Notes under the pieces: generated by a model
The model's input: only the letters and a program-made list of their open reading frames with translations
Databases searched by the model: none
Told to the model about the DNA's origin: nothing
NCBI GenBank assembly: GCA_030390025.1
Contig: CM059449.1
Location: 15,562,001 to 15,626,000 of the forward strand
DNA: 64,000 nt
DNA from: Squalus acanthias
Lineage: Eukaryota
Reading direction: 5' to 3'
Position numbers and translations under genes: made by a program
Part shown: piece by piece, positions 7,199-53,868 of the stretch
Position numbering within the stretch: the first letter of the stretch is position 1
Layout of the letters: each line of letters starts with the position of its first letter

Positions 7199-7199
7199 G

Positions 7200-7598
7200 A
7201 GTTAACGTTTCAGGTCGATGGCTTTTCGTGAGAACTGGAAAAAGTTGGAGATGGAACAGATTTTTAAGCAAGTATAGGGGCAGGGAAAGGGGGGAGGGGA
7301 GGAAAGAACAAATGGGACAGTCTGTGATAGGACGAAAGGCAGGAGAGATTAAGAGAGAAAAGGGATGATGTTGCAAGGCAAAAGGAGATGGTAATGGGAA
7401 AAGTTAAGAAACAAAAGATGACTCTAGATGAAGTGTAAATGGCAATGGCAGAATGATCGACCATCCCACCATTTTCTTGCATTATCTTTCACTTTAACCA
7501 AGTGCCACCATACTGACTATATTATTGTTTCTGTTTCTAACAGGAGCAGGAGTCGAGCCGATCTGCCATTTCCCCACACTCAGCGTTGGATTACAAGT
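7200..7598 (+). pseudogene. Duplicated copy of gene B intron end plus truncated stalk/TM exon (exon part 7544-7598)
   Basis: Colinear with 27183-27580. Reads (G)AGVEPICHFPTLSVGLQV versus (R)ARVEPICHFPTLSAGLQV; homology stops before the hydrophobic core. Confidence 0.8.
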
Positions 7599-11530: not shown

Positions 11531-11636
11531 TTACTTCACCGAAGCGTACAGCACCGCTTCTCGCTTCACAGGGCGCTCAGTTTGATTGCTGTCCTGAACA
11601 TTCAGCGTGGCGTATTGTAACTTGTCATCTCCCTCT
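11531..11636 (-). CDS. Gene A terminal exon with two ITIMs: EGDDKLQYATLNVQDSNQTERPVKREAVLYASVK*
   Basis: LQYATL and VLYASV both match (I/V/L/S)xYxx(L/V). Acceptor ctcaataaag (phase 2); stop TAA at 11531-11533. Confidence 0.85.
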
Positions 11637-14600
11637 CTTTATTGAGATGAAAGTGTTTCAGTGTTAAATAAAATATTGTAAACTGAATATAGCGTAGGGC
11701 CTCAAATCCAGCGCAACAGATGTTGTGCAGTTTCAATGGAATATAATTCAACCCAGTAAACATTCTACAGATAATTAGGATATGACTCCACCTATCAAAT
11801 ATTGTTTCGTTAAATAGGATAGATCGCGCCGTCCTAAATATTCCTGTCCTTTTGAATATATTTCAGCGAGTCAACGATTGCACGATTTAAGTAACAAGCA
11901 AGAGAAACAGTCGATCTAATTAACACTTCATTATAATGTTAAAATCCATGCATTTAGAACAATTCACACTTAATGAATTCAGGAGCAGTGGGTCAGTCAG
12001 CATCTGGGAAAGACAGACTTACATTTGGGAATAACTGTTCAGGAGCACTTTCCGTTGAAGGCAAAGTGCCAGCCCACCGGTTTCCCTGTGCTTTCTCATC
12101 CAGGAGCTCACTGACATTCTTTGCATATCCAGCATTTTCTGTTACGGCTGCAGATTTCCTCCTTATCTCGACTTTGTCAAAGTAGGTGTATTTTTACATG
12201 TGTATGCCTGGGTGTTCCGATTTTGGAGTCTATTTTAATGTTCCTGAGTGTATCTCGTGCCTTATTGATTCGTTAATGGGATGTGGACGTCGCTGGCAAG
12301 GCCAGCATTTAGCCCATCTCTAGTTGCCCTTGAGAAGGTGGTGGTGAGCCGCCTTCTTGAACCGCTGCAGTCAAGGTACTCCCACATTGTTTTTCATAGC
12401 GGCTTTTTAAAACTGAGTGGCCATTTTAGAGGACAGTTGAGAGTCAACCACATTGCTGTGGGTCTGGCGTCACATATAGGCCAGACCTGTTAAGGACGGC
12501 AGATTTCCTTCCCTAAAGGGCATTAGTGAACAAGATGGGTTTTTACGACAATCCGATAGTTTCATGTCACCATTACTGATACTAGTTTTTTAGTCCAGAT
12601 TTATTTAATTAAACTTAAATTTCCCAGTTGTTGTGGTGGGGGATGAACTGACGTCGCACGGATCATTAGTCCAGGTCTGATGCATTACTAGTCCAGTAAC
12701 ATGAGCACTATGCTACCGTTCCCTATATATGTTTGTGCATGCACCTGCTTATTTGTGTGTGGCTATATGTATTTGCGAGTGTCTGTGAGAGTGTCTCTTT
12801 CTGTGTGTGCAGGTGTTTGAATTCTGGGACTGTCAGGTTTCATTTCATGCCTTTCCTGTTTGGCTTTCTGTTGAATTATAACGAATATTCCAATCCCCGG
12901 CTCTCTTCAATTTCGATTTTCAACTTGCCGCGCCTGTGCGTAAAACTGGCGTTTGGGTTGGGCCGCACCTGTGCTTTACGCCTGTGTGACAAGTTGAGAA
13001 TCTACCCCACATCTTCAAGAAGAAAATTTGAGCCCGTCCAACCTCGTTTCATCTTTAGAATTTTACATCAACTGAGAGAACTTTTTACATGATAATCTAC
13101 CCGGAAAAGTAAACAAGAGGTTACTAGGTTTAAAAATAACAAAAATAGCCCAAGTCATTGTGCTACATACCCGATTCGTTCTTCTGCATTCAGAGCTGTC
13201 ATAATTCCTCTCTATAAAGCATAGAAAAAAGAAACAAAGAAAGTCATGCATTTATATATCGACTTTCACCACCTCAGGACGTCCCAAAGCGCTTCACAGC
13301 CGATCAAGTACTTTTTGAAATGTAGTCGCCGTTGTAATGTAGGAAACGCCGCAGCAAATTTGCACACAGCAAGCTCCCACAATCAACAATCTGACAATGG
13401 CCAAATAAACTGTTTTTAGTTATGTTGATTGAGGGACAAACATTGGTCGGGACACCGGGGAGAGCTCCCCTTCTCCTCTTCAAAATAGTGCCAAGGGATA
13501 TTTTACGTTCAGCTGAGAGAGCAGACGGAGCCTCGGTCTATTCTCTCATCTAAAAGACGGTATCTCCGACAGTGCAACGCTCCCTCAGTACTGCACTGGG
13601 AGTGTCAGCCTAGGTTTTTGTGCTCAAGTATCTGGAGTGGGAACTTAAAACACACAGCTTTCAATGTTTCAGAGGCGAGGGTGCTACCAACTGAGCCACG
13701 GGAAATGACCCTCCCTAATTTAATTTACTGGAACAGTGTATACAATACAATACAACATATTGTGCCATAGATATAGCGCTGTAATGCACTGTGGTATAAT
13801 GCTATAGGATACAACATAACATGGTAGAAAACAGGAGAACGCAATAAAATGAAGTCTACAGTAGGATGTACCGTATTGCAAAACAATAAAAGGATACAAT
13901 TAGTATGGTCCAAGATATAATACGCTACCACGCAATATAAAACAGCATAAGGTTCTTCTGTGCGATAGAAACGGTGTTCATGTCAGATTCCTAGGCCCAC
14001 TATTTTAACTGTTTACTTTAAACTAATGCAAAAAGCAATTTGACATGAGCGCGCCAAGCACTCGTACGAGAATAGCGTGATGTCCAGACTAATCGACTAT
14101 AATATATGATATATAATACAGCATGACATTGAAACGTACTTTTTAATGTCATGTAATAATTCATCACAAAAAAAATCAGCGTGTGGTAAGAAAAAATTAT
14201 AAAATATTATATTATCCATAAACCTTAACACTTCCAATTGACTTTGTGGCCAATATGTCTAACATGTGTCACTCAATAACCGTTCTGGAAACAATAATTA
14301 TTGAATCATAGAGTCATACAGCACCGAAGGAGGCCATTTGGCCCAACCTGCCTGTGCCGGCTCTCTGAAAGAGCTATTAATTAATCCCACTGCCCCCACC
14401 CCCCCCCGCACCGCTCTTTCCCCATAGCCCTGAAACAATTCCCTTTTTAACCATTTATCCAATTCCCTTTTGAAAGGTATTCTTGACTCTGCTTCCACCA
14501 CCCTTTCAGGCAGCGCATTCCAGATCACAACAACTCACTGAGTAAATAAAAATCCTCTAATTTGTCCGTCGCATTTTCCCCCCCAGTATCTTAAATCTGT

Positions 14601-17600
14601 GTCCTCTGGTTGCCGACAGAATAATCAGACAGATCAATACTGAACTCATGGTCAACGGATTATACCTGATAGATAAGAAAATTAACCAAATTATCAATTA
14701 AAATCAAATTAAATCGAAGGAGTAAGCGTTCGGAGTTTATTAAAAATGACAGGTTGCTCACGTTTCTTTCTGTCACCCACCTGTTTCATGGATCTCTGAG
14801 TAGAGCGGATCTGGACTGAAGCAAAAGAGGACATCAGAAAATTTAGGCATCCCAAACAATAAAATGCATTAAAGAAAAAGAAAGTGGTTTTCTTTAAAAA
14901 AAAGTAGATCTATGTAAACAGTTACCTGGTGGGTTGCTGAAGAGCGACTGTGAGGAGAGAAAGACAAAGACAGAAAAATTAAAGAGCTGAAGTTATTGAT
15001 TATACCTGCAAGAAGCAACGGAAATAATTGGTATCGAAATAATTGAATCACATTTTGGGGGCAACTTTAACCAAACCCGCAGAGAAACGGACGGGATAGG
15101 GTGCAACGTTTTGAAGTCAAATGAGAGCAATATTGGGCGGGTCTAAACCCGGCGTTCCACCCGATACCCTGCGTTTCCCGCCCGGTGAGTTCGGATAAAA
15201 TTATCAGAGAATTTGCCAACAACATGGAATTCAGTAGAGGTACAATTAGTGCTGTTACCTCTCTTACGATGCCGGCTGATAACAACTATGATTATGATGA
15301 TGATGATGATCACGAGAGGCACCGCTACCGCTGCATAGACGAATGGTTGGATCATTGGTGCGGACTCGCCGTGGCTGCTCTCTCCACCACCTGTGTGTAA
15401 ATCTAAAGTTTCTTTTGTGAGACAGAGCAGTCAAGAGCAGGACAATGGTCACATTGAGATTGAGGATCCGCAAATGGGACACAGATTCCCAATCCCCTTT
15501 GACATGCGGGGCTATTTCACACTGGCATACATCAAACTAGGCCACGGATCAAAACGCAAAATGTCACCAGTGGGCAACAGGGGATATTCCCACCCTGGAA
15601 GTAACACTGGGGGAATTTTAATGTAGGGACGCTTAATGGGTTGGTGCCAGTTTCCTTTCATTTAAATAGCGGGGGGTGGGGTGGGGGTCGTGTGAGTTCT
15701 GTTAACATAGGAACATGAGGAGGTCATTCAGTCCCTACAGCCTTTTCCACCATTCAATGAGATCATGGCTGATCTGCGACCTAACTACATATAACCGCCT
15801 TTTGCCCCATATCTGTTAATACATTTGGTTAACAAAACTCTATCAATCTCCGATTTAAAATAAAAAATTGATCAGTTGTCGTTTGCGGAATAGAGTTCCA
15901 AACTTTTACCACCCTTTGTGTGTGTAGAAGTGTTTCCTAATTTCACCCCTGAAAGGTTTAGCTCTAATTTTTAAACCCTGGAGATCCAATAGGTCCAGAG
16001 CAAGAACGAGAAAATCTTCCCCTCGTATTTACGGGATGCTTAAGACAAAACAAACATCTGGAAATTAGACGGGCCGAAACTGGGTGATCAACGTGGTTCT
16101 TCCGCGGACCAATCTTTGCATTTTGTTGGCGCAATGTTGTAATTTCTATTTACACACTCAACTATATCCGTCACTACCTTCATTTGCAGGATGACAGTGA
16201 AATCTAACTTATCATACATGTGTTGTCCGGTTTATTCCCAATATTGGTACGCGGTGATTTCAAGGCTCACATGTTGCTCTAATTACGGGGCTCCAGTCTT
16301 CACCTCGCACACTGTAACTGGGTTGACTTCTTATCTATAGTCCTACCTAAAATTGTATACAGCAACTGAATGTCATTAATATCCCCTCCATTTATTTATT
16401 TTAAAAGATCATTCTCGGGTTACGGGCGACGCTGGCGAGGGGGGCATGTTATTGTCCATCTCTGCTTGACCCCTTCAGAAGGTGCTGGTGGGCCGCCTTC
16501 TTCTTGAACCGCTGCAGTCCGGTGTGGTGATGGTTCTCCCGCAGTGCTGTGAGGGAGGCAGTTCCAGGATTTTGGAAGGAACAGCGATACAAGTCCAAGT
16601 CAGGCTGGTGTGTGACTTGGCGGGGGACTTGGAGGTGATTATGTTCCCATGCGCCTGCTGCCCTTGACCTTCTAGGTGGTGGAGTTCGCGGGTTTGGGAG
16701 TTCCAATTGATCTGATGGAGAATTTACCTATACGGCCAATATTACCCCCTAGTAAAATCCCACATGAATGCGTGCAATTTCATTGGTAAGAATATCTCCA
16801 CCAATCCAAACTTACTCTGTTGACGCCGTTCCACGGTCACTGTTGTCCCGTGTCCCTCTGCTGCAGCGAATCCCACGAGCTGCACCTTGCAGAAATAGAA
16901 CCCTGTATCTTCCGGTTTCAGTTGGATTATTCTAATGGACGCGTCTCTCCTCTGTCTGAAATCCTCTTCACTTGCCCCGAACACCCTGCCTCTGTATTCC
17001 GCTGTATTGTTGGAAACTTCATTTCCCTGTTTGGTGCCTCGGTGCCACGTGTAGCTGCCGATTCCTGTGGGACCCTCATATCTGCAGAGTAGGTCCGCTG
17101 TCTGGCCCGCGGTTTTGGTGAGTGATTGCGGTCTCTGAATTACGGTGATGTTTCCAACAGTAACTGCTGCAAGTGGGTAAAACAGACCATCTATAAATAT
17201 ACAGGGCACTTCTTTGCTTTAAAGCACGCCGTGGAAGGGCTGGTTTTAAACAAATATTATTTCGGAGGATTTTTGATAAGGTATTCCTGATCTTTAACTT
17301 GAGGGAATAAAAACAGAAAATACTGGAAACGCTCAGCAGGCCAGGCAGCATCTGTGGAGAGAGCAACAGAGTCAACGTTTCAGGTCGACGACTTTTCGTC
17401 AGAATTGGAAAAAGTTGGAGATGTACCAGGTTTTAAGCAAGTGTAGGGACAGGGAAAAGGGGGGAGGGGAGGAAAGAACAAAAGGGAAGTTCTGTGATAG
17501 AGTGGAAGGCAGGAGAGATTAAATAACACAAGCGATGATTGGACAAGTAAAAAGGAGATGGTAATGGGACAAGTAAAGAAACAAAAGATGGGTCTAGAAA

Positions 17601-19518
17601 AGGTTTAAATGTTTAACTTGAGGGATATTGGTGCTGGAGCTGGAGCGCCTTTGGTTTTTGGGCGCACTCCTCGGTCAAGTATAGAATGGATCTGGTACAA
17701 AGTACCTCTGTCCCGTTCCAGATAATAAGCATTCAATTTAATTTCAGTTCTCCCGATATTCTTTCTGTGCTGCCCGCCGGTCTCATTAACACTTTGAGCG
17801 AGGGTGTGAAATGGGCAATCTCGAATTAAACGGCTTGCCCGATGTTCTCTTCCATTTGGGGGTCATTTTAACTTTAGGTGCTAAATGGTCGAGAGCGGGT
17901 CGGCTGCCTGAAATTAAAATCGGGGCAGGTGTACAACGGGCGGCTGATCCGATGTCGCCCGTTTCAGTCGGTCCTGCAAATTCAAAATTACCCCCAGGAA
18001 TTGAGGAGAAGTTTAATCTCATTAGTCTGATCATATTGGAACTCAGATAATTGCTAAACCCCAGCGACCTTCTCACTATTAATCAGCGGTGACTGGAGAA
18101 TATGGAAAATACAAACAGAATATTAATAGTCAAAATAATGAAACCGGCTAAATGTTACATGTAGCGACATTACAAATTGGATGAATGATTTCCCACTTTG
18201 GGTATATCTTGTACAATCGCCAATACCTCTTTAAAAATTGTTTACGGATCAGAGAAAATAGCCAATGCATTTGCGACCTCATTGGAAGCAGCAAGCAGCG
18301 CAACTCTTGCCCTGTGTTGATAACTAGAGAAAGGTTGTATCCAGTTAAATTACTATAAATAATAGGAATTGAACAAAAAAAAAGTCATGCCCCCTGGAAA
18401 CGGGTCTTTACTTGAACACTGCCAGCACTGCAAATATTCACTGTTGTGGATAGAGAATATTGGCATTTTTTGTAGATATAATAACATAGAATCATAGAAT
18501 AGTACAGCAGAGAAGGAAGCCTTTCGGCCCATCGAGTCTGCGCCGGCTCTTTCGAAGAGCAATTCAGTTTGTCCCACTCCCCCGCTCTTCCCCGCTATCC
18601 CTGCAATATTTTTCATCATTAAATATTTGAATCTGTATCCACCACCCTATCAGGCAGAGTACTAGGGCAATCTGTACTTCAGGGAGCAACATACATTGTG
18701 CTCTCCTGGAACAAATACAATAAACCTCGTTATCCGAGAGCTGATCCGTCTCTCACGTTTAGCTCTCTCTATCTCTCTCTGTCTTCCTCAGTCTCTCTTT
18801 CTCTCTCTCACACACACGCCCGATTGGAACCCATTTCTCTCTCTCTCTGTTTTCCTATTCCTATCCATCACTTGTTGATTTAACCCGTCTACCCTCCCAC
18901 TATTTCCAACCTTGATGCTGTCATACGCCATGGGCCATGGGCCCTTCATTAAATGCTTCAATTAAAAATAAGCAACCTCGAAAGCGTTAGCTTCTCTGTG
19001 GCGAGCCCTGGTTAACTGCGAGATTGATTATATTACCAGGACATTAATCATTACCACGGCGCTGAGAAATTAAGATGGTTAATCTCGCGTCCATGAGAAT
19101 GTCCGCACAAACCTGATGTTCTTTGAATTGCAGGCGAGCTGGTCATGAATGTAAACTGGGTGAAATCTACAATCTGGTGCTCTGATCAGCAACTATGGAT
19201 ATCGGAATAAGATTTAACCAGATACACATATAAGTAAGAAAAAAATAGATGGGAGGACATCGCTATGGGTCTTTAATATCTAATTAAGACATAGAATATT
19301 TTATTAAAGTCATTAAGAAATTATGGAAATTAAAATCAGTCCATTTCAATAACAGGCGGCCGCTCCGCAACGCCAGCTTCACGCCCAGGCGGCAAGTTGA
19401 AAATCTACGCCATATTCTTGAATGGAGCTGATGTATCAGAAATAAGCTTACCGGAGAACATAGCGAATGCCCAGGTAACTGCAGCCCAATTCATTCTCCC
19501 TCTCGGCGGCGATATCAT
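11531..19518 (-). CDS. NCR3: Gene A: NKp30/NCR3-family inhibitory-type receptor (leader - IgV - TM - Tyr module - ITIM tail), multi-exon
   Basis: Exons 19452-19518, 16816-17166, 15259-15390, 14926-14947 and 14781-14815 join in frame with GT/AG sites. Terminal exon 11531-11636 has two ITIMs. The junction(s) between 14781 and 11636 are unresolved. The symbol is family-level, not orthology. Confidence 0.85.
12270..12722 (-). mobile_element. tRNA-derived SINE with LINE-like tail
   Basis: Minus-strand head ggtagcatagtg...ttactggactagtaat; the same family recurs at 31260-31390 and in every unit of the 56-64 kb array. Confidence 0.7.
13171..13211 (-). CDS. Candidate gene A cytoplasmic exon (41 nt; ERNYDSSECRRTNR in phase 1, or RGIMTALNAEERIG in phase 0)
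   Basis: Very strong acceptor tctttgtttcttttttctatgctttatag and donor CGG|gtatgt. Its phase does not close with both neighbours without another small exon. Confidence 0.5.
13230..13700 (-). mobile_element. HE1-like tRNA-derived SINE
   Basis: A-box-like tggctcagttggtagcacc head, aagttcccactccag, conserved body; paralog at 20365-20820. Confidence 0.75.
14303..14615 (-). mobile_element. CR1 LINE 3' end
   Basis: IWNALPERVVEAES...FKRELD; ctatgattc tail. Confidence 0.8.
14781..14815 (-). CDS. Gene A 35-nt cytoplasmic exon (S)PDPLYSEIHET
   Basis: Acceptor tcctcttttgcttcag, donor AG|gtgggt; phase 2 to 1; YxxI motif. Confidence 0.75.
14926..14947 (-). CDS. Gene A 22-nt cytoplasmic exon (V)ALQQPT
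   Basis: Acceptor ctttgtctttctctcctcacag, donor CAG|gtaact; phase 1 to 2. Confidence 0.75.
15058..15205. repeat. MITE-like palindromic family member
   Basis: ggggcaactttaacc...aaaattatc ends; related to 34158-34342, 17859-17995 and 42823-42989. Confidence 0.5.
15259..15390 (-). CDS. Gene A stalk/TM exon (S)GGESSHGESAPMIQPFVYAAVAVPLVIIIIIIIIVVISRHRKR
   Basis: Acceptor ttacacacag, donor AG|gtaac; phase 1-1. Uncharged hydrophobic stretch followed by an RHRKR stop-transfer sequence. Confidence 0.9.
16425..16702 (-). mobile_element. LINE 3' fragment (same family as 23020-23520 and 33380-34125)
   Basis: Shared ...GLQRFKKAAHHHLL terminus and ttgcccatccct-type tail. Confidence 0.75.
16816..17166 (-). 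CDS. NCR3: Gene A VJ-type IgV exon, NKp30-like
   Basis: LLC...IGSYTWHR...GNEVSNNTAEYRGR...DASIRI...EDTGFYFCKV...GHGTTVTVE, compared with NKp30 IGSVTWFR...GKEVRNGTPEFRGR...YVCRV...GNGTRLVVE. Acceptor ccacttgcag (alternatives at 17190 and 17163); donor A|gtaagt. Confidence 0.92.
17305..17610 (-). mobile_element. Penelope-derived pLTR repeat with degenerate hammerhead (17370-17406)
   Basis: Same family as 27080-27440, 40020-40345 and 45429-45790. Confidence 0.75.
19452..19518 (-). CDS. Gene A leader exon MISPPRGRMNWAAVTWAFAMFS
   Basis: ATG at 19518 (second in-frame ATG at 19494), hydrophobic segment, phase-1 donor G|gtaagc in frame with the V exon. Confidence 0.8.
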
Positions 19519-19809
19519 TTCAGAAAAGAAATTCAGGTAGTGTACAGACAGGAATATTTAAGTAATGCAGCGGGAGAGTGAACCTGAGTCAGAGTCCGGA
19601 TGTGAGGGAATGGAAAAAAAAATGAATTGCAAGCTGTTTATACAACCGCAGTTATCTCTCTCGCACATGGTTTGTCTCTCTCTCTCGCTCTCACGCACAC
19701 ACACACACACACACACACACTCGCATTCTCTCTCAAGGACAGTTCGCAGCAGATACTCACACGCGGGGTAGATTCATGGCTTCACCCGTAACCTGGGTCC
19801 TTAACTGAC

Positions 19810-20350
19810 CACGGGATAGGAGGCAGAGAGTCGTGGATGTTTCTGTCACTGGTGAGAAGTATGCAGTGGGGTTCCCCAGTGATTGGTATTAGGACCATTG
19901 CTTTTCTTGTTATATAGAAATGTTCTGGACTTGTGTATAGGGAGCACAATTTAGAAATTTGTGAATGATGCAATAATTGGTAACATAGTAAATAGTAAGA
20001 GGGACAGTAGCAGACTTCAGGAGGACATAGCCTGATGAAATGGGCAGGTACATGGCAGATGCAATTGAATGCGGCTAAGTGTGAAGTGATGCACTTTGAG
20101 AGGAGCAACATGGAGAGGCACTGTGACCTAAATGGTGATATTTTGAGGGGGTGCAAGTGCAGAGAGACCTGGGTGTGCATATTCACAAATATCTGAAGGT
20201 GGCAGGGCAAGTTGACAAGGCAGTTAAGAAAGCGTGTGTGATACCTGTCTTTGTCAATCGGGGCATTGAATGCAACAACAAGGAAGTGAAGCTAAGCCTT
20301 TACTAATCACTGGTTAGGCCTCAGCTTTTGTATTGTGTGCAATTCCCGTT
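19810..20350 (+). mobile_element. Degenerate CR1 RT fragment
   Basis: Decayed SGVPQ / KWAGTWQMQLNAAKCEVMHF / LVRPQL..CVQ motifs. Confidence 0.75.
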
Positions 20351-20364
20351 TTCTCGTTTAGAAA

Positions 20365-20820
20365 GAAAAGAAGGAATTGCATTTATATAGCGCCTTTCAC
20401 CAGCTCAGGATGTTCCAAAGTGCTTTCCAGCCAATGAAGTACTTTTTGGAGTGTAGTCACTGTTGTAATGTAAGAAACGCGGCAGCTAAATCTGTGGACA
20501 GCAAGCTCCCACAAACAGCAAGGTGATAATGATCAGATAATCTGTTTTATAGTGATATTTACTGAGGGATAAATTTTGGCCCAGGACACGGGGAGAACTC
20601 CCCCTGCTCTTTTTCGAAATAGTGTCGTGGGACCTATTACATCCACCTGAGAAAGCAGACAGTTTAACCTCTCATCCGAAAGAAGGCACATCCGACAGTG
20701 CGGCGCTCCATCAGTACTGCCACTGGAGTGTCAGCCTAGATTTTTGTGCTCAAGTCTCTGGAGTGGGACTTGAACCCACGACCTTCAGAGACTCAAGCGC
20801 TGCCCGCTGAGCCACAGCTG
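20365..20820 (-). mobile_element. HE1-like tRNA-derived SINE
   Basis: gtggctcagcgggcagc...gtgggttcaagtcccactccag (A/B box-like). Confidence 0.8.
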
Positions 20821-21154
20821 AATCCTAAAGGGCTCCTGTTCCTTCATTTTACTTCACACGCACATAGTCAAGAACTCCCTTTTCAGCTTCCCTAATGTGC
20901 GTTGAGTTTTCCTTTCCCGATCCTTGCTCTCTCTGAAGAATTTGTCACATTGCGTGTACACACACACATATATATATATATATACATAACTCTAACTGCA
21001 ACAGCAGTGCTGGGTTGACTGGGCGTGTATGAGCGTATGTCTGTGAGAGAGAGGATGTGCAAACTGTGTGCGTGCGAATCAGAAGGATAGTAAGGGCTTT
21101 CTGCACAGAGTATCTGACAGCTTGTCAGGGTCTGCAACGACCTGCGAGCTATTG

Positions 21155-21200
21155 ATGTTCGTGGCCCTGGTGTCAGTCAACACGTTGACTCCGCTCTGCG
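21155..21200 (+). CDS. Candidate leader exon of gene B (MFVALVSVNTLTPLC)
   Basis: 46-nt ATG-initiated phase-1 segment in frame with the V exon at 25634. The donor gtcagc is weak and hydrophobicity is modest. Confidence 0.3.
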
Positions 21201-21511
21201 GTCAGCTACGTGCCAAGAGTGAAGCTGTGTGGGCGTCGAGCTCTTCGCTGCCCAACCCAACCTGTTAACCTGAGCGAGTATTTTGAAAACTCGCAGATGA
21301 AGTCCTATAAATATTCTAGCGAGATCGACAACTGACTGAAATGTGTTTATCGCTGAACGCTACAGATCGTGAGGTGTGAACTGTGGGCGGGTAACTGCAG
21401 AGAATCATCTCGCAAATATTTCCACTGCTTTAGTGCGAGGCCTATTTTGCCTTAAAGCAAATCTAGAGGCCAATGATATATCAAATAGGGAATTCAGAAG
21501 AAGCTTCTTAT

Positions 21512-22072
21512 AGAATTACAGACGGTTACAGCGCAGAAGGGGGCCATTCGGCCCGTCGAAGAGCACTTCAGCTAGTCCCACTCCCCCGCCCTTTCCCCGT
21601 AGCCCGGCAATTTTCTTTTCCTTCAGGTACTTATTCAATTCCCTTTTGGAAGCCACGATTGAATATGCCTCCACCAGCCTCTCAGCCACTGCATTCCAGA
21701 TCCTAACACCTCGCTGCGTAAAAAAGTTTTTCCTCATGTCGCCTTTGGTTCTTCTGCCAATCACCATAAATCTGTGTCCTCTGGTTCTCGACCCTTCCGC
21801 CAATGGGAACAGTTTTTCTCTATCTGCTCTGTCTAGTGCCCTCATGATTTTGAACATCTCTATGAAATCTGCTCTCAATTTTCTCTGCTCTAGGGAGAAC
21901 AACCCCAGCTTCTCGAGTCTATCCACGTAACGGAATTTCCACATCCCTGGAACCATTCTTCTAAATCTTTTCTGCACCCTCTCTAAAGCCTTTACATCTT
22001 TCCTTAATTGGACACAATACTCCAGTTGTTGCTGGACCAGTGTTTCATAAAGGTTCCTCATAACTTCCATTG
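21512..22072 (-). mobile_element. CR1 LINE 3' fragment
   Basis: ORF 21516-22070 carries CR1 ORF2 C-terminal motifs. Confidence 0.9.
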
Positions 22073-23019
22073 ATATGAAAAGGTAAATCGGCTGGGGTTT
22101 ATTACAGGCTGCCGATCCGCCACTGCCCGTTTTCCGCTCCCAAAGGAAGTTGACATTTGACCCTGCTGTTCTTTTTCCAGGTGCTCTCCCCTATCTGGAA
22201 CTACAGTGTTGATTTATCCCAGTTTAGGCTCTCGTCGTCCTACCGCAGCATTACAGTTTCTTGGGACAGGTAACTCTTAAAAGTACAGGATTTTTTTTTT
22301 AAGTTTGGCTGGAATAAGTAGCAAAAAGCACTAATCATGTCGTGCCCGTCGAAAGGGCTCTGAAAGTGAAAGGCATGCTGTTGGATTTACACAACTGGGC
22401 TCAGCACCATTCCGTGACATGTGGCCAACACATGTTCATGTTTCAGACAATTGCCAGGCACTATTTATTTAAATCAAACCCGAGTACTATCACCGGTTCT
22501 CATTTACAAACTCTGCGCCCTCTAAGTTCATTCTAACATGTTTGTCATTGTTTAAACAGGGCGAAGATGAGTTTCAATGCCCCGGGTGCGTAAACACTCA
22601 CTGAAATTAGTGAAGGGTGAAACTGAACTGCGAGGCGTTATTCCTTTGTTTCAATGTACCGCTTGTGTAATGTTAAAGTAGTGCTTCTTTCTTAAGTATT
22701 CTTAAAATATGACGTTTCCGACTACAATTGGAAAACGTGCGTAGTGAACAGAGTTCCTCTGTGCTTTGTTAAACCACCAGAAGGTTTCGTCATATAAGTG
22801 AACGTCTGCTGTGGGATGTTTGCTAAACTTAACAGCACTTTCGGACGCTGCAGGTCAGATGTTAACTCGTAGTGTTCTGCGGAGCAAGAATGAAAATGCC
22901 TCCTATTCGCATGTGGAAGTTGTTGAATTAACGGAACATACTTTTGCCTATCGGTGAGCCGCTGTCTTCTGATGTACACATTTTAATGTTTTTTCGGGTT
23001 TTTTAAATTCGCTTATGGG

Positions 23020-23520
23020 TTCTGTGTGTCGCTGGCAAGGCCAGCATTTATTGCCCATCCCTAGTTGCCGTTGAGAAGGTGGTGGTGAGCCGCCTTCTTG
23101 AACCGCTGCAGTCCGTGTGGTGAACGTTCTCCCACAGTGCTGTTAGGTAGGGAGTTCCAGGATTTTGACCCAGCGACGATGAAGGAAGGTGTGTGACTTG
23201 GAGGGGAACTTGGAGCTGGTGGTGTTCCCATGCGCCTGCTGCCCTTGTCCTTCTAGGTGGAAGAGGTCGCGGGTTTGGGAGGTGCTGCCAAAGAAGCCTT
23301 GGCGATTTGCTGCAGTGCATCTTGTAGATGGTACACACTGCAGCCACGGTACGCCGGTGGTGTAGGCAGTGAATGTTTAAGGTGGTGGATGGGGTGCCAA
23401 TCAAGTGGGCTGCTTTGTCCTGGATGGTGTTCGAGCTTCTTGGTGATGTTGGAGCTGCACTCATCCAGGCAAGTGGAGAGTATTCCATCACACTCCTTAC
23501 TTGTGCCTTGTAGATGGTGG
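23020..23520 (-). mobile_element. LINE RT C-terminal fragment
   Basis: MEYSPLAWMSAAPT...IQDKAAHLIG. Confidence 0.85.
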
Positions 23521-24749
23521 AAATTCTATATTTATTAAGGTGTACGATTATTTGTTTGGGCAGGTTGTTTCCTTATGCAGAACTAATATATTACGAAGTT
23601 ACAGTGTGTAAAAAAAACGATTTTATTTTATTATGCTGTGTTACTTTGCGTTGAATCCACCTTTTCAAAGGTATATGCTTTTTATCTTTCGGGGAACTTT
23701 ATATATATATTATACACATTAACGTTCTCCTCCATGCAGAAGCTGTGAATTTGCATTTTACAATTAACATAATTAATAGGGCCTACTAAAATGTATTTAT
23801 GGAAATAAATTAACTCACGGACTCCTAAACGACTGTGTTGCACATGGAATTATCTGATATATTATACCTTCTACTCGACAAATCAACGTCTTTGCGTTCG
23901 ACACAATTTATTCCATTCGCAAAAAATTGATATTCAACCCGTTTCCAAAAGTTCCCATACTTACACTTGACATAATAGAAAGGACAGATTTCCTTCTTAA
24001 ATGATTAAAGATGACAGAAGTGAAATCTGCCCCCAGTATGAGGTTGAAATAGAAATGATTTGGGGAATGGTGATTATATTATGCCAATACAAAGTAAACA
24101 AACTGCGTGAAAACACAGCAGATCCGCCTTTATAAAGTGACAATTGCCTCTAATTTTTCCACTATAAAGGTTCTGAATATATACAGATGTTCAATCTGAT
24201 TATGGACTGCAATTTCCCAAAGTTCCGTGAGAAACGGGAAAAGGACCCAATGTAATGACAGCTGATATAGGTTTGTAGCTCAATGATTGATGGATCAATC
24301 AGCATTTTAAATTCTTCATAATAGCTTGTAAATTGTGGGACACAAGAGATCATTTTGTCCAAAAAAAACCTGTCCCTGTTTGACAGATCAATGCTTCTTT
24401 CTCCAGAAACAAACATGTTGTCTCTTGAATCTATTTGTACTGCCCACTCCCACGGCCGTCTCCAGTAACTTGTTCCACAAATCCCTTACTCTATAGGCGT
24501 ACAGTTTACGCCTGACTTCCCTTCTTATAGCTAACTAGTTAACGTCTAAAGTGTGACCCTTGGAAATGAGATCCTTCCCCACAGTGACCGATCTATCTGG
24601 GCTCAATTCATAATAATTGTACAACGTTAATTGACAGGTTGCGGTATTTCATGTACGATACATTGATTCGAATTTATTCCAACAAAAAAGGACACCCTGT
24701 AACATCAATTAGTGACAGTGAAATATACTTTAATTTGAGCTTCACACCT

Positions 24750-25572
24750 CGTGGCAGATGACATTTCACGCAAGAAAGTGCGAAGTGTTACATTTTGGTA
24801 GGAAGAACGAGGAGAGGCATGATAAACTGAAGGTTACGATCCAAAAGGGGCTGCATGAACAGAGAGACCTGGGGGTACATGTGCACAAATCATTGAAGGT
24901 GGCAGGCCAGGTTGAGAAAGCGGTTAACAAAGCATATAGGAGACTCGGCTTCATAAATAGAGGCATAGAGTACAAAAGCAAGGAAGTTATGATGAACCTT
25001 TATAAAACACTGGTTCGGCCTCAACTGGAGTATTGTGTCCAATTCTGGGCACCACACTTTAGGAAGGATGTGAAGGCCTTAGAGAGGGTGCAGAAAAGAT
25101 TTACAAGAATTGTTCCATGGATGAGGAGCTTCAGTTATGTGAATAGACTGGAGAAGTCGGGGCTGTTCTCTTTGGAGCAGATAAAGTTTAGAGGAGATCT
25201 GATAGAGGTGTTCAAAATCATGAGGTGTCTGGACAGAGTAGATAGAGAGAAACTGTCCCCATCGGTGGAAGGGTCGAGAACCAGAGGACATAGGTTTAAG
25301 GTGATTGGCAAAAGAACCAAAGGCGACATGAGGAAAACTTTTTTACGCAGCGAGTTGTTAGGACCTGGAATGCACAGCCTGAAAGGATGGTGGAGGCAGA
25401 TACAATCGTGGCTTTCAAAAGGGATTTGGATGAGTACCTGAAGGGAAAAAAATGCAGGGCTACGGCGAAAGGGCGGGTGAGTGGGATTAGCTGAAGTGGC
25501 CTTGCAGAGAGCCGGCACGGGTTCGGCGGGCTAAATGGCCTCCTTCTGTGCTGTAACCATTCTATGATTCTC
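24750..25572 (+). mobile_element. CR1 LINE 3' fragment ending ~60 bp upstream of the gene B V exon
   Basis: ORF 24758-25441 KCEVLHFG...LVRPQLEYCVQFWAPH; ttctatgattct tail. Confidence 0.92.
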
Positions 25573-25633
25573 TACTGGTCTATAATTCTGTAGGTCACTA
25601 TTGACAGATTGCATTGTTCCATTTATACTCTAG

Positions 25634-25972
25634 ACAATGGGTTGATGAGTGGAATCAGAGTGTTCCAATCCCCAGATGCCATCAATGTAATAGAAGGAGG
25701 ATCGGTACAGCTGAACTGCACTTTTGAGGCGAATAGTACTGTCGGACGAGTTGTTTGGAGGCGGGCCTCACAAAACATGGAAGTGTCGGTTCGGAATCCT
25801 TTCTATCAGAGCCGGGTAACGAAGCCAGTGTCGAAATTATTTGCAGAAAAAATGGCTTTCATTGAAATGATCAATTTACTGACAATGAACGCGGATTTAT
25901 ATAACTGCGAGGTGGAAATTCCGGCGCTTGGGAAAGCAGGCGGGACAGGAACACAACTTATAATAACTGACA
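25634..25972 (+). CDS. NCR3: Gene B VJ-type IgV exon, NKp30-like
   Basis: VFQSP...EGGSVQLNCTF...VGRVVW...EVSVRNPFYQSR...LYNCEVEIPALGKAGGTGTQLIIT. Acceptor tatactctag, donor A|gtaagt, phase 1-1. The symbol is family-level. Confidence 0.9.
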
Positions 25973-26767
25973 GTAAGTAGAAAAGATCAGAGTTCGTTTT
26001 AAGAATTTACCAATATTTTGACATTGGTATGGCTGTACATGTGCTATGCTAAGAGATTTCAGTTCGTTTGCTGAATTGTGTCCGTGTGTCAATATCACTT
26101 TCAAAGTACATCAGGAACAATTGTTCGACAATTAATATCCTGAAAGTGCCGTATATCTGACTTGAATCTGGCTATTCAAGGCGCGGTGCTTTAGGAATAG
26201 GAATACACGAGCTTCAAGCTACTCCCCCACCCCCACCACCCCACCAGCTGAAGGTTAGTGTTATTTCAAAATAGTACTTTGCATTATCCCTTGATATTCT
26301 TGCTTGGCACCTTACCTTACCTCTGTTAGGGAGGTGCTGCTGAAGAAGCCTTGGCGAGTTTAATGAAATAGGCTTTAGGTATAATTTACTGTTTTCGATA
26401 TAAGCCTTTATTTTAAACAGGTTAGCGTCTTGGTTAAAATGAAAAGAATTTGCACGCTAGTATTTCAACAAATAATTATAGTTTTTTCAGTTTCCACGTG
26501 GATGCAATACCTCAGATTACATAAAAATAGGAAACGGCCTTTCTTTAACGTATAGAACGCCACTGGAATGATATTTCAGTTTTCATATCCTATAACTGAG
26601 CAATCCAAATTTAATTATTAAATTGCGCACTAGTGGCCTTCGTTATGGCGATTTCTGATTTCAATTGATAGGCGGGGTGTGGGAGGCGGGGCAGTGTGAT
26701 CGCCTGATATACACTCCGCCCAGTAATGCGTCCAATTGCCTTAAAATAAAACTGAATATAGGGCGCA

Positions 26768-27440
26768 CCAAAGCCAAATGCTGCGGATGCTGGTAATCTG
26801 AAAAAAGAAACAGAAAATGCTGGAAAATACTCAGCAGGTCAGGCAGCATCTGTGGAGAGTGAGAAACAGAGTTAAAGTTTCAGGTTTCTGACAGAAGGGC
26901 ATCGATCCGAAACGTAAACTCTGTTTCTCTCTCTCCCTGCAGATGCTGCCTGACATGCTGAGTGTTTCCAGCATTTTCTGCTTTTTTTATATTGAATATT
27001 GGGCGAGTTGTACAGCGGTCGGCCAATATGATTCTGTCTGCCTTGAGAGCACGTCCATGTCCAATTTCACCCCTACAACAACACAAAAGCCAAATACTGC
27101 GGATGCTGGAAATCTGAAATAAAAACAGAAAATGCTGGAAATTCTCAGCCGGTCAGGCAGCGTCTGTGGAGAGAGAAACAGAGTTAACGTTTCAGGTCGA
27201 TGAGCCTTCGTCAGAACTGGAAAAAGTTGGAGATGGAACAGGTTTTTAAGCAAGTGTAGGGGCCTGGAAAGGGGGAGGGGAGGAAAGAACAAAAGGGAAG
27301 GTCTGTGACAGGATGGAAGGCAGGAGAGATTAAAGAGACAAAAGTGATGATGGTGCAATGCAAGAGGAGATGGTAATGGGACAACTTAAGAAACAAAAGA
27401 TGACTCTAGATGAAGTATAAATGGCAATGGCAGAATGATC
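26768..27440. mobile_element. Penelope-derived pLTR cluster (inverted pair 26768-26990; longer copy 27080-27440 with hammerhead 27182-27218)
   Basis: cagaaaatgctggaaa...gcagcatctg arms in inverted orientation; minus-strand AGTT-CTGACGA...GAAACGTT-AACT. Confidence 0.8.
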
Positions 27441-27525
27441 GATCACCCCACCATTTTCTTGCATTATCTTTCACTTCAACCAAGCGCCACCATACTGACT
27501 ATATTATTGTTTCTGTTTCTAACAG

Positions 27526-27647
27526 GAGCTAGAGTCGAGCCTATCTGCCATTTCCCCACGCTCAGCGCTGGATTACAAGTTACAAAAACGGAGCTGCTGA
27601 TCATTCTCATAATCACAGGCCTGACGACGTACCTCTGTCCCACGTAG
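27526..27647 (+). CDS. Gene B stalk/TM exon (R)ARVEPICHFPTLSAGLQVTKTELLIILIITGLTTYLCPT*
   Basis: Acceptor gtttctgtttctaacag, phase 1, in frame with the V exon. Lys and Glu lie in or at the edge of the TM. TAG at 27645-27647 overlaps a possible donor AC|gtaggg. Confidence 0.75.
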
Positions 27648-27874
27648 GGAAAAATACTATGATTTATAACAAGATACATCAGCAAACGCTGTTAGAAAAG
27701 ATGTCGAAAGTCGATGTAAATTTTATCAGGAAGTTCTTTATGTTGCCCATGGTCGATATCTTTGTGTTACAGCATTGCATCGATGTGGAGTAAAGCATGG
27801 GCGATGATAGATATCGTTTTATTACAAAATATTTCAATTAAAGTTACTGCAGCGTCAACATAATAACTATGAAT

Positions 27875-31804: not shown

Positions 31805-31980
31805 CCCTCGAACCTGCACGCTTACAACGGTCAGTGATATATTGAAGTGCAGATCACTCTTCTCTTTATCTCTCTATTTAATTGATGTGCATTTAGATAT
31901 TCAATCCACTGACATCTTTTTCCCTTTTCCGTTTTGATCTCAAAGCAATATTGCGCCTTGCAGTAACATTATTTTTAATG
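31805..31980 (+). pseudogene. Degenerate tail module 1 (25-nt exon 31805-31829 with GG acceptor; 35-nt exon 31946-31980 NIAPCSNIIFN)
   Basis: ttttattcccacgg instead of ...cacag. The 35-nt exon keeps AG/gtgagt but has TGC at the codon where paralogs have Tyr. Confidence 0.55.
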
Positions 31981-32204
31981 GTGAGTATTAGTTATATGCA
32001 TTTAACTGTTCGATTTTCTAAATAGTCCTTGAAGCAATTTTTTTTAATGAGCAATTATTGTTAGTAAAGGACTTCAGTAGTTGCGCTGATTTTTATTGCT
32101 GGATGTACAGAAGAGGTACATACAATTTTAATCTCATTTCACATTATCAAATGTCTTGTTTGCATCAAAGGATAGACCTTAATTTTCGGCTTTCATTCCC
32201 ACAG

Positions 32205-32362
32205 AGTTAGCTCCACAAGCACAAAGGTTGGTTGGTGGTTATGAGGGTGAAGCATTTTTTAAATTACCTGGATTTTTGTTTCAGCTATGTGATGTATCTT
32301 TTCTCTTCCCAGACCCTGGATGGACATCGCTGGTTCCGCCTATGATGACATTAATCCAGCTG
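32205..32362 (+). CDS. Intact tail module 2: exons 32205-32226 (ELAPQAQ) and 32313-32362 (RPWMDIAGSAYDDINPA)
   Basis: Acceptors ttcattcccacag and tttctcttcccag; donors AG|gttggt and TG|gtgagt; phases 1-2-1. SAYDDI is ITIM-like. Confidence 0.7.
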
Positions 32363-33104
32363 GTGAGTGACGCACCTGCAGAGCAGTTAACCTGCTCCTC
32401 AATGGACCGGTTGCTTCAGAGCCTACCTGCACTGCCCGGTGTACTCCTGAGTCACCAGTGCCAGAGAGATCCCATGGTTAGATCCGTGAGATGTGCCGAA
32501 CTAACTGATCTTACTCTGGCTGGTGATTGGGTGCTACGGTGGCCGGGATTTTAATCGGGAGTCTGGTTGGGTGCAGAGCGGAAAGACTGGCTGGGAGCTG
32601 TGAGGTGGGAGGTATCAGGTGCGGGCCGGAGGTGAGGTTGGGTTGTCGGGGGCCGGAGGAGGATTGGGCAGGAGGGAGGGAAGCATCGGGGCCGGAGCGT
32701 CGAGGAGGTGAGGGAGAGAAGATCGGGGCAGGAGCATTGGGTGGGGGGTGGTGTGGACAGGGAAAGAATATCGGAGCCGGAGCATCAGGGGAGAAGGGAG
32801 AGAACATTGGGGTTGGAGCCTGGGGGCAAGGGGGGATCGGGAGAAAACATCTGGGGGTGGGGGTGGGGGGAGAGGTGGGATCTGCTTGCACCATCTTTTC
32901 AGGTCGTGCTTTCCCTATCATAACAACTCACTGCATAAAAAATTCTCCTGAACTCCCCTCTGGTACTTTTGCCAATTATCTTGAATCGGTATCCTCTGGT
33001 TACCGACCCTCCCACCAGTGGAAACAGTTTCTTGTAGTCGAACTGTTTTTAAAAAGATTGCATTAACGTTACAAAGCTTTCATGGTGAACTTTTACTTTT
33101 GTAA

Positions 33105-33263
33105 ATGTTCCTCCACCACTTGGAAGGTCGGTAAATCTCAGAGTTAACGTTTCCTACATCTTTTATGCTAATTGCTCTGTAACTCTGCAGTAACACTCAT
33201 TTTCTCTTATTTGTATGTCGTCCCGAAGGAATGAGCCGTTCTGTGATTAAACTAACTTGGATG
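33105..33263 (+). pseudogene. Dead tail module 3 (22-nt DVPPPLG exon with AA acceptor; 35-nt exon 33229-33263 NEPFCD*TNLD)
   Basis: Same sizes and phases as the intact modules. Acceptor ttttgtaa, Tyr position TGT, in-frame TAA. Confidence 0.55.
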
Positions 33264-33379
33264 GTGGGCACCACCGATTAAAGAATCATTTAACAAGATT
33301 CAATAAGGCTTCAGTATTATACTTGTGTGAATAGCTCAGGATCAAACTCAGTAGCTTGGTGTTTGCTATTTTTTTAAAT

Positions 33380-34125
33380 ATTCGTTCTTTGGATGTGGGC
33401 ATCACTGGCAAGGGCAGCATTTATTGCCCATCCCTAATTGCCCTTGAGAAGGTGGTGATGAGCCGCCTTCTTGAACCGCTGCAGTCCGTGTGCTGAAGGT
33501 ACTCCCACAGTGCTGTTAGGGAGGGAATTCCAGGATTTTGAGACAGCGACGATGAAGGAACAGTGACATACTTCGAAATTAGGATGGTGTGTAACTTGGA
33601 GGGTAACTTGGAGGTGATGGTGCTCCCATACGCCTGCTGCCCTTGTCCTTCTATGTGTTACAGTTCGCGGGTTTGGGAGGTACTGCCGAAGAAGCCTTGG
33701 CGAGTTGCTGCAGTGCATCTTGTCGATGGTACACACTGCAGCCACGTTACACTGGTGGTGGAGGGAGTGAGTGTTTAAGGTGGTGGACGCAATGCCAATC
33801 AAGTGGGTTGCTTTGTCCTGGATGGTGTCGAGCTTCTTGAGTATTGTTGGAGCTGCACTCATCCAGCCAAGTGGAGAGTATTCCATCACACTCCTGACTT
33901 GTGCCTGGTAGATGGTGGAAAGGCTTTGGGGAGTCAGGAGGTGCGACACTCGCCGCAGAATACACTACATCTGGCCTGCGCTTGTAGCCACATTATTTAT
34001 GTGACTGGTCCTGTTAAGTTTCTGGTCAATGGTGACACCCCCAAGATGTTGATGGTGGGGGATTCAGCGATGGTAATGCCGTTCAATGTCAAGGGGCGGT
34101 GGTTAGACTCTCGCTTGTTGGAGAT
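33380..34125 (-). mobile_element. LINE RT C-terminal fragment
   Basis: ORF 33434-33949 IYQAQVRSVMEYSPLGW...WNSLPNS. Confidence 0.9.
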
Positions 34126-34157
34126 GTAATATTCTTCACCTTGTGCTGTTGGACACG

Positions 34158-34342
34158 GGGCAATTTTAACCTAACCCGACCATCGGGAAACTGACGAGAT
34201 CGGGTGGAACGCCGGCATTACATGCCGCTCGATTTTACTCTCCAGTGAAGTCAGTGGAGGGTAATATGGGGCAGGGGGTGTAAAACCGGAGTTCCACCCG
34301 ATCCCGTGGGTTTTTCTGGCCGGCCTTAGGCTAAAATTACAC
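34158..34342. repeat. MITE-like palindromic element
   Basis: gatcgggtggaac/gttccacccgatc inverted repeat; centre ctccagtgaagtcagtggag; aattttaacctaa/ttaggctaaaatt ends. Confidence 0.65.
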
Positions 34343-34840
34343 ACGGTATCAGCAGCGAGCACTGCTGGAGCGCTATTGAATTACAGCACCGGTTCGGAGG
34401 AGCGTAGAGTCCCCCCTGCACCGTACTAACGCTATACTTTAGCCACAATCTCTGAAGAATACCTCTCATTGGATCAGTATGACATCGCTTTTGATTGGTT
34501 GGGCAGCTACACACCATCCCTTTAATGCTTCATTATATTCAGTTCAACCACGCCCGCTGGATGCTGGATTACCTAAACTATCTTTACACATTGCCCCTCT
34601 AGACAGGGATAAAGGGCACCCTCACCCGGCAGTTAGAGTTGGAATGAAACTGGTCGCATAATGAAATGGGAACCGACTGCAGTGAAACCTTCCCACTCCC
34701 ACTCCCCTCAGATAAACAATTATTAATTAATATTGAAAAATGATAAAAACCAAGACGCAGTTAAGAATGGAGCTGTGCTAAACGCAGTCTCAGATATAAC
34801 AGAGTTACGAATTTCTTTTTTGTTCATTGTCTTTCCACAG

Positions 34841-34974
34841 ACTTCTCTCCACCTTTGCAATGGTGCGTAGATATCACTGTGACATTTTGCTGCCTTTATT
34901 TTCATGGCACGTACCGCGTGTCCTCCCTTTGTGGTTCAGTGATGAAGAGGTGTATGCCGAAATCCCCCCGCTTG
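34841..34974 (+). CDS. Intact tail module 4: exons 34841-34862 (DFSPPLQ) and 34940-34974 (CDEEVYAEIPPL)
   Basis: Acceptors tgtctttccacag and ccctttgtggttcag; donors TG|gtgcgt and TG|gtaagg; 22 + 35 nt, phases 1-2-1; acidic YxxI. Confidence 0.75.
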
Positions 34975-36129: not shown

Positions 36130-36359
36130 CATGATGCGGAGATGCCGGTGTTGGACTGGGGTGGACAAAATTGAGAGGTCGCACAACACCAGGTTATAGT
36201 CCAACAGTTTTATTTGAAATCACAAGCTTTCGGAGCTATCGATTGCTCCTTCCTCAGGTGAAGTGAGGAAGGAGCAATCGATAGCTCCGAAAGCTTGTGA
36301 TTTCAAATAAAACTGTTGGACTATAACCTGGTGTTGTGCGACCTCTCAATTTTGTCCAC
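36130..36359 (-). mobile_element. Young Penelope-type pLTR insertion forming a perfect hairpin, with 13-bp TSD
   Basis: Arms 36161-36256 and 36264-36359 with a 7-nt loop; CCACAGGGGAGGT at 36117-36129 and 36356-36368. Confidence 0.85.
36220..36261 (-). ncRNA. Minimal type I hammerhead ribozyme
   Basis: TCAC-CTGAGGA-A-GGAGC(aatcgata)GCTCC-GAA-AGCT-T-GTGA: intact core, stems I and II, palindromic stem/loop III. Confidence 0.8.
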
Positions 36360-45428: not shown

Positions 45429-46017
45429 ACAAAAGCAAAATACTGCGTATGCTGGAAATCTGAAATAAAAACAAACAATGCTGGGAATACCCAGCAGGTC
45501 AGGCAGCACCTGTGGAGATAGAAACAGAGTTAACGTTTGAGGTCGATGGTACTTCGTCAGAACTGGAAAAAGCTGGAGATGTAACAGGTTTTTAAGCAAG
45601 TGTAGGGGCAGGGAGAGCGGGGAGGGGAGGAAAGAACAAAAGGGACTTTCTGTGATAGGATGGAAGGCAGGAGAGATTAAGAGACAAAAGAGATGATGGT
45701 GCAATGCCAAAGGAGATGGTAATTGGACAAGTTAAGAAACAAAATATGATTCTAGATGAAGTGTAAATGGCACTGACTGAATGATCGATGTGAGAGAGAA
45801 TTTTTTTTTTTTAAAGATAGGGGCAGAGGTTATGGTCTGAAATTGTTGATCTCGATGTTGAGTGCATCGGGTTGTAAAGTACCTGATTGAAAGATGAGGT
45901 GCTGTTCCTCGGGCTTACGTTGTGCTTCATTTGAACAGTGTAAGAGGCCGAGGACGAGAGGTCAGAGTGTGAGTGGAGCGGAGAATTAAAGTGACAGGCG
46001 ACTGGAAGCTTGGGGTC
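45429..46017 (-). mobile_element. Penelope-like element 3' part (continues at 54390-54498; split by the ERV)
   Basis: Homologous to 2320-2910. The sequence resumes after the right LTR as homologue of 2910-3015 (GDRFVGHLRSVRKGD). Confidence 0.85.
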
Positions 46018-46538
46018 TGTCGAAGTATCGACTTCCGATTCAAGACTCTTGTAAACAATATCGTCAAAGAAGGCTTTTTATTATATTTTACTTGCAAGGA
46101 GACTGCAACCATAGCCCAATTAGCTATGATGACAGACTGCCGAATCACAGAAAATGGAGTATTCTTATACAGTATAATATCACATGACATGTTGTTTAAG
46201 GTAAGCTAAGTTAACAATTAGAAAAAACACGTTAGAAATGCCTTACAATGAGACTAGCTAATCTCTATAAAATGGAGTCTCTCTATTTTACTTCTCTCAC
46301 CAAGGCCAAGGCGCCTGGTTTGTTTACTTTACTAGCCCTTGGTTATCTCAATATTAAGCCTGTTTTCTTTTGTGCAGGCAGACTTTTGCTGACAGCATAG
46401 TCTAAGACTTTTAAGTTATTTTCAGAAAAGAACATAACAATGGATTTTTTCCCTTTTCCACACAAGTCAGAGTCGGCCATTTTATTAGTTTAAATTCAAG
46501 GAAACCATTTTGTCCGAGACAGAAACTGCACTTCCACA
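46018..46538 (-). repeat. 3' LTR
   Basis: TGTGGAAG...CTTCGACA on the minus strand, preceded by PPT AAAAAAGGGGGGAA (46539-46552). Confidence 0.95.
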
Positions 46539-47967: not shown

Positions 47968-47992
47968 TGTTTAAGTCTTTTCAAATTCAAAT

Positions 47993-48735: not shown

Positions 48736-48758
48736 TGTAAGTCCTTCAAAATTTAATT

Positions 48759-53844: not shown

Positions 53845-53862
53845 ATCTCGGTGGGACCTCCA
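53845..53862 (-). promoter_or_regulatory. Primer binding site, tRNA-Gln
   Basis: TGGAGGTCCCACCGAGAT, complementary to the tRNA-Gln 3' end. A candidate major splice donor CG|GTAAGT follows at ~53823-53830. Confidence 0.9.
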
Positions 53863-53868
53863 AGAAAC

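Follow-up and report, generated by a model that had tools for sequence, protein, structure and literature searches.

An old, likely inhibitory NKp30-like gene and a divergent, probably dead hybrid neighbor in a part of the NCR3 cluster of Squalus acanthias

We analyzed a 64,000-nucleotide stretch of Squalus acanthias DNA (GCA_030390025.1, contig CM059449.1, positions 15,562,001 to 15,626,000), here called the window, for two genes, A and B, that resemble NCR3, the gene encoding the receptor NKp30. By protein likeness the DNA comes from a cartilaginous fish, with shark proteins being closest to the variable (V) exons of both genes. Most of the window consists of long interspersed nuclear element (LINE)-type and other repeats. 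The V exons of gene A (17166-16816, minus strand) and gene B (25634-25972, plus strand) are divergent with a gap of 8,467 bases, in agreement with an earlier note on this DNA that placed them head to head about 8.5 kb apart. Both are single, open exons of phase 1 to 1 with a J-like strand carrying G-x-G-T. Both were matched by Pfam V-set and had human NKp30, likewise a single V domain protein, as the best PDB match (E-value 1.3e-13 for gene A and 4.7e-08 for gene B), with NKp30 accounting for the top four of 305 structure matches for gene A and for all four matches for gene B. The assignment of both V exons to the NKp30/NCR3 type by the earlier note is supported by their orthologues. Searches of the window found no other V exons, and no major histocompatibility complex (MHC) genes were recognized within it. 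The exon models of both genes are known here from the genomic sequence and from comparison with orthologues (Table 1).

The subtype letters A to D are labels of the present analysis. NCR3-like genes of the horn shark (Heterodontus francisci) lie on one contig and encode XP_067865393-96 (A), XP_067865589-93 (B), XP_067865360-69 (C), and XP_067865380-81 (D). The A type matches gene A exon by exon, the B type matches gene B by leader and V exon, and the C type matches the window by its tail exons. For the nurse shark, NCR3 genes are listed as MT914154-914161 (PMC12227049).

The leader, the V exon, the exon for the transmembrane segment (TM), and the 22- and 35-base tail exons of gene A join in frame at canonical splice sites. 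The gene A V domain is about 70-74% identical to those of catshark XP_038671257, horn shark XP_067865395, and nurse shark NCR3 QTT61898.1. A V-domain phylogeny that included named shark NCR3 proteins, as the earlier note had suggested, was made from 22 rows chosen from the matches and without a non-NCR3 outgroup. Gene A was found in a starred clade of six rows (100/100) together with catshark, horn shark, QTT61898.1, and two bamboo shark models, and its V identity within this clade was 64-74% in the alignment of the tree rows. Judged by these sequences, gene A is the orthologue of an old NCR3 subtype that is present in four other shark species. A short ATG-led stretch with a strong donor lies upstream of the gene A leader (19777-19761, minus strand) and is a candidate first exon.

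An uncharged TM followed by three tyrosine motifs had been described for gene A. The TM and all three motifs are present, and LQYATL and VLYASV fit the pattern of the immunoreceptor tyrosine-based inhibitory motif (ITIM), (I/L/V/S)xYxx(L/V/I). PLYSEI fails the pattern by having Pro at -2, and two of the three orthologues compared (horn shark and catshark) lack its Tyr. Among 88 proteins compared, the last exon of gene A matched four shark proteins, of catshark, horn shark, and bamboo shark origin, with z scores of 20-24, and lungfish NCR3-like XP_043938374 with a z score of 7.6 (40% identity over 30 residues; reached in 0 of 500 shuffles). Since the tails of orthologues match this exon, it belongs to gene A by orthology. 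The exon is free of stops and 49-62% identical to its orthologues, with both motifs kept and both ITIM tyrosines retained in three other shark species; the nurse shark entry QTT61898.1 ends before it. The tail of gene A is therefore likely to be of the inhibitory type with two cytoplasmic tyrosine motifs, which by analogy with other ITIM receptors would recruit SHP-1/SHP-2 once phosphorylated. Caution comes from NKp44, whose ITIM does not recruit SHP-1/2 (PMC6514059).

The V domain of gene B is 51-65% identical to its nearest tree rows, which are automatically annotated NCR3-like proteins. Its homologues were obtained by a HMMER search; a word-index search gave none at near lengths. Among the four closest single-V relatives two are full length, and the other two are models without a TM. 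In both full-length orthologues, horn shark XP_067865593 and zebra shark XP_048376288, the tail is long and contains motifs of the ITIM pattern. A horn shark protein of the B type combines an Arg at the TM edge with an ITIM-pattern tail, a dual design like that of human NKp44.

To locate the leader of gene B all 6,749 GT sites of the window were scored against the leaders of two orthologues. The stretch 22896-22953 ranked first with a score of 39 against 33 for the next (z score 4.4). It has an ATG at codon 1, is exactly 19 codons long and ends in a phase-1 donor, and the sequence directly 5' of it also resembles the N-terminal extension of the horn shark protein. Codon 12, a Leu in both orthologues, is TAA. 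An alternative leader at about 21155-21200 was set aside as resembling a chance match; it is one of 13 such stretches in the 128 kb of strand, shows no likeness to any orthologue and was picked by a crude filter that misses the real leader of gene A.

For the region behind the V exon of gene B, the earlier note had described a TM with Lys and Glu followed by a minimal tail. The open frame with both residues and the stop at 27645-27647 was found as described. Lys and Glu, however, precede the 15-residue hydrophobic core, and C-type tail exons follow downstream. The segment contains no Arg, and its hydropathy of 1.54 is the lowest among 12 TMs of the family (the others range from 1.71 to 3.51), its neighbors in rank being the two C-type TMs. 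At its start the exon has a VEP motif in common with the two C-type TM exons, and the T-K-G that ends the horn shark C-type exon stands at the position of its stop. This is suggestive of 27526-27648 being a decayed C-subtype TM exon, a reading based on weak similarity and on its place in front of C-type tail exons.

Eight plus-strand exons between 31805 and 34974, beyond the region covered by the earlier note, match the tyrosine-rich tail of horn shark XP_067865360-69. When the C-type tail peptides were placed in the window, three of nine ranked first among about 128,000 frame positions and the others ranked 6-151. The exons follow the horn shark order, and the eight alternate in splice phase. 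Three lesions were found: two acceptors lack the AG (GG and AA instead) and one exon contains a stop. The window did not yield the C-type exon that bears the first YDDI motif, and a 22-base candidate at 27730-27751 ranked only 151. Neither a B-type tail nor a C-type V is present in the window; among the matches listed, no collinear match was seen for the C-type leader or V or for the TM and tail segments of the two full-length gene B orthologues. When the C protein of the horn shark was searched against the ESM Atlas, only generic V-set clusters were returned.

The tails of the A and C subtypes (14947-14781, minus strand, and 31805-34974, plus strand) share a recurring pair of a 22-base exon (phase 1 to 2) and a 35-base exon (phase 2 to 1), the latter often with a tyrosine motif. 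The pair amounts to a 57-base module whose gain or loss would leave the reading frame unchanged. At its end the horn shark C-type tail matches an antisense LINE frame of the window (25056-24996, minus strand), and the last C exon may thus be partly derived from a repeat.

Table 1. Positions of the exons and exon candidates of genes A and B and of the C-type tail within the window.
Feature	Position	Strand	Remarks
Gene A signal-peptide exon, coding part	19452..19494	-	Phase-1 donor; similar to the orthologous leaders in horn shark, catshark, and nurse shark
Gene A VJ-type V exon	16816..17166	-	351 bases, open; tandem acceptor 3 bases on, as in horn shark isoforms X1/X2
Gene A stalk and uncharged TM exon	15259..15390	-	132 bases
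Gene A 22-base tail exon	14926..14947	-	Canonical AG/GT, frame kept
Gene A 35-base tail exon with PLYSEI	14781..14815	-	PLYSEI departs from the canonical ITIM
Gene A 41-base tail exon	13171..13211	-	Likeness to a horn shark exon in two frames; register with the last exon off by 2 bases
Gene A last coding exon with LQYATL and VLYASV	11531..11638	-	Uncertainty of 2-6 bases at the start; has homology with tails from three shark species and with a lungfish protein
Candidate non-coding 5' exon of gene B	22181..22269	+	Good acceptor and donor only
Candidate small 5' exon of gene B	22560..22585	+	Good acceptor and donor only
Gene B orthologous signal-peptide exon	22896..22953	+	In-frame TAA at 22929-22931
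Gene B V exon	25634..25972	+	Open; 64% identity with horn shark XP_067865593; Asn in place of Asp in D-x-x-x-Y-x-C
Charged TM-like exon of the earlier note	27526..27648	+	Likely decayed C-subtype TM; phase-1 end lacks GT; 27643 is a weak phase-2 donor; stop codon at 27645-27647
C-type tail exon	31805..31829	+	Acceptor GG
C-type tail exon	31946..31980	+	Intact; rank 1 of about 128,000
C-type tail exon	32205..32226	+	Intact
C-type tail exon with YDDI	32313..32362	+	Intact
C-type tail exon	33105..33126	+	Acceptor AA; rank 1 of about 128,000
C-type tail exon	33229..33263	+	In-frame stop at 33248-33250
C-type tail exon	34841..34862	+	Intact
C-type tail exon with YAEI	34940..34974	+	Intact; rank 1 of about 128,000

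Four sequencing runs, presumed to be RNA, were compared with the window. The best word share with the window among six candidate runs was 0.33, and repeats crowd the alignments. As the runs hold at most one third of the window words they come from relatives. In run X1 one contig spans exactly 25634-25972 while another leaves the window at the gene A acceptor 17166. These contig ends weakly hint that splicing occurs in a relative, and they are silent on which exons join. No exon-exon joint was seen among the 15 joints listed of 977 from the runs, and parts of the window that the runs leave uncovered carry no evidence either way. The V exon of gene B differs from the contig of a related organism at 34 of 339 bases, about as much as a piece of gene B intron does (23 of 209; p 0.77) and more than the gene A V exon (8 of 214; p 0.008), although the contig matched to the gene B V exon could be a paralogue.

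We consider it about 70% probable that the window holds a part of the shark NCR3 cluster in which gene A is an old, likely inhibitory subtype, and gene B, with the stop in its leader, a likely dead hybrid of a B-type V exon and C-type membrane and tail exons. In the horn shark each V exon has its own TM and tail, while here a B-type V exon precedes C-type tail exons that carry stops and lost splice sites. A deletion or inversion may have joined the V-TM introns of two neighboring members of the NCR3 family, with decay following. In a fused catshark model the C-type gene follows A on the same strand, whereas in the window the tail exons of C type are on the opposite strand, upstream of A. Such an arrangement would follow from an inversion, which predicts a reciprocal half to the left of the window. 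The short charged tail would then be a by-product of decay rather than a design for binding an adaptor, and the hybrid may have worked for a time before it decayed. A direct copy (91.5%) of 27181-27580, comprising a fragment of a repeat together with the acceptor of the TM-like exon and 55 bases from its start, was found at 7199-7598 on the plus strand, after which the sequences diverge abruptly; it is perhaps a relic of rearrangement.

Several observations weigh against this interpretation. The TM-like exon scored a z of 2.5 with the catshark C-type TM, third of 71, and only 0.7 with that of the horn shark, and two other proteins scored higher. The places where C-type exons were expected were picked after the sequence had been seen. 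All lesioned C-type exons can be skipped without a change of frame if the donor at 27643 is used, and the resulting 212-residue product is open. A second leader-like stretch exists at about 21155-21200. The V exon of gene B remains open and keeps its two Cys and the Trp, and five of the seven listed differences from the relative are synonymous, so that any loss of function would be recent or partial. The clade of gene B lacks starred support; its fork with the named shark protein QTT61901.1 reached 84/92 in the tree without a non-NCR3 outgroup. In gene A the nearest splice sites put the ITIM exon out of frame by a shift of 2 bases.

The last of these points raises the question whether both genes are losing function, with gene A mainly producing a receptor without ITIMs. 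The 41-base exon at 13211-13171, which the earlier note did not include, resembles a horn shark exon in each of the two frames that isoforms of that species use. When it is joined to the nearest AG of the last exon a stop follows after three codons and the ITIMs are out of frame. The horn shark isoform XP_067865396 likewise reads the homologous last exon in another frame. The 2-base discrepancy could be on either side of the junction, donor or acceptor, and it may be genuine, an allelic variant or a slip in the assembly; a simple mutation of the last acceptor was dropped as an explanation because the missing 2 bases fit the donor side equally well. Decay of gene A, which would be compatible with the preferred explanation for gene B, is nonetheless rather unlikely. 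The ITIM exon is conserved as described above, a 2-base slip in an AG run is typical of an assembly error or an allele, and three of the nine AG-based splice routes keep the ITIMs in frame.

A living hybrid would require an alternative first exon to supply the signal peptide and a B-type V exon that is joined through donor 27643 with the five C-type tail exons still intact, which would give an adaptor-like tail with YDDI and YAEI. This route removes the stop of the TM-like exon, remains open in frame and skips exactly the damaged exons, and the open V exon with its mostly synonymous differences is in its favor. We find it improbable, given the stop in the orthologous leader and the unremarkable alternative leader. 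Moreover, donor 27643 scores 0.3 compared to 2.7-5.5 for the donors of gene A, no basic residues follow the TM, and the Asp of a conserved V motif has become Asn.

In a related scenario rearrangement of the cluster swapped tails between subtypes and the product is alive, with a B-type V domain, which in other sharks is inhibitory, on a C-type tyrosine-rich tail. Had this occurred by inversion, a reciprocal C-type V on a B-type ITIM tail would be expected to the left of the window. We hold this to be improbable as well. If true, ligand specificity and signaling polarity of NKp30-like receptors would have been recombined by exon shuffling in the oldest lineage with adaptive immunity.

The earlier note had interpreted genes A and B as an inhibitory/activating pair that possibly shares a bidirectional promoter, gene B being the activating partner that uses its charged TM and an adaptor. 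The V domains of A and B are 28% identical, and a tree with both in one clade was rejected (p-AU of the approximately unbiased test 0.00015), as was a grouping of the gene B V with C-type V domains (p-AU 0.00002). The ATGs of the orthologous leaders of A and B are 3,402 bases apart, and pieces of LINE and other repeats lie between them at 19813-20345, 20367-20768, and 21509-22068. The CpG ratio is raised near 19.0-19.8, 21.0-21.8, and 22.6-23.0 kb and low in between. With repeats between the ATGs and no single CpG-rich block, this interval shows no sequence sign of a promoter shared by A and B. Known paired receptors (KIR, LILR, CD300, PILR, and SIRP) are likewise neighboring related genes with tails of different type, but they have very similar ligand-binding regions (PMC3533184), unlike A and B, of which B is also broken. 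Human NKp30 signals through a TM arginine with CD3zeta/FcRgamma (PMC6514059), and this arginine is absent from both A and B. The mammalian activating design of a TM arginine and a short tail was accordingly found in neither gene, gene A having an uncharged TM with a long tail and gene B a Lys and a Glu.

A pair of this kind is thus very improbable and largely refuted by the leader stop of gene B: the head-to-head layout, the opposite-looking tails, the Lys near the TM edge, and the existence of short-tailed family members with an Arg in the TM (XP_043533794 and XP_039594836) speak for it, but the V domains are dissimilar and belong to separate old subtypes, both full-length gene B orthologues are of the ITIM type, the TM-like exon is not proper to the B subtype and is the weakest of the 12 TMs with its Lys beside a Glu outside the hydrophobic core, decayed C-type tail exons lie behind the minimal tail, and 3.4 kb of repeat-laden DNA separates the ATGs.

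With gene B read as a likely dead hybrid and gene A as a likely inhibitory receptor, the shark NCR3 cluster would consist of old, divergent subtypes with different tails and would turn over by rearrangement and decay like other natural killer (NK) receptor clusters. Kinlein and colleagues reportedly described eight divergent MHC-linked NCR3 subtypes in sharks in 2021. The XMIV genes of Xenopus, reportedly described by Ohta and colleagues (2006), are said to be V genes related to NKp30 and linked to the MHC, with ITIMs in some and a charged TM in others; no relevant paper was found under that name. If so, they would be prior art for opposite signaling on an NKp30 scaffold.

ITIM tails of shark NCR3 are not claimed as new here, as RefSeq models already carry them. 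No literature on ITIM-bearing or paired shark NCR3 was found in a search that did not extend to the primary shark NCR3 papers. Lungfish, sturgeon, and stingray NCR3-like proteins were found to have uncharged TMs and ITIM-pattern tails, and the lungfish tail aligns with the last exon of gene A. The lungfish counterpart of the two-tyrosine exon, together with the ITIM-pattern tails in sturgeon and stingray, suggests that an inhibitory NKp30-like receptor existed in early jawed vertebrates, which may already be published.

Three further elements were observed in the window. A retroviral-like element at 46017-54399 is bounded by 532-base direct repeats that are 98% identical (46017-46548 and 53868-54399). 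It contains an integrase remnant at 47993-48637 (MLVIN_C, E-value 1.4e-15) and a near-perfect inverted repeat at 48798-49160, and has no long open frames. A tandem unit of about 1.97 kb made of LINE fragments occupies 55608-64000 in at least four copies that are 88-93% identical. A near-perfect palindromic insert of 199 bases (97%) lies within a LINE at 36161-36359, and a weaker one is found at 34162-34338.

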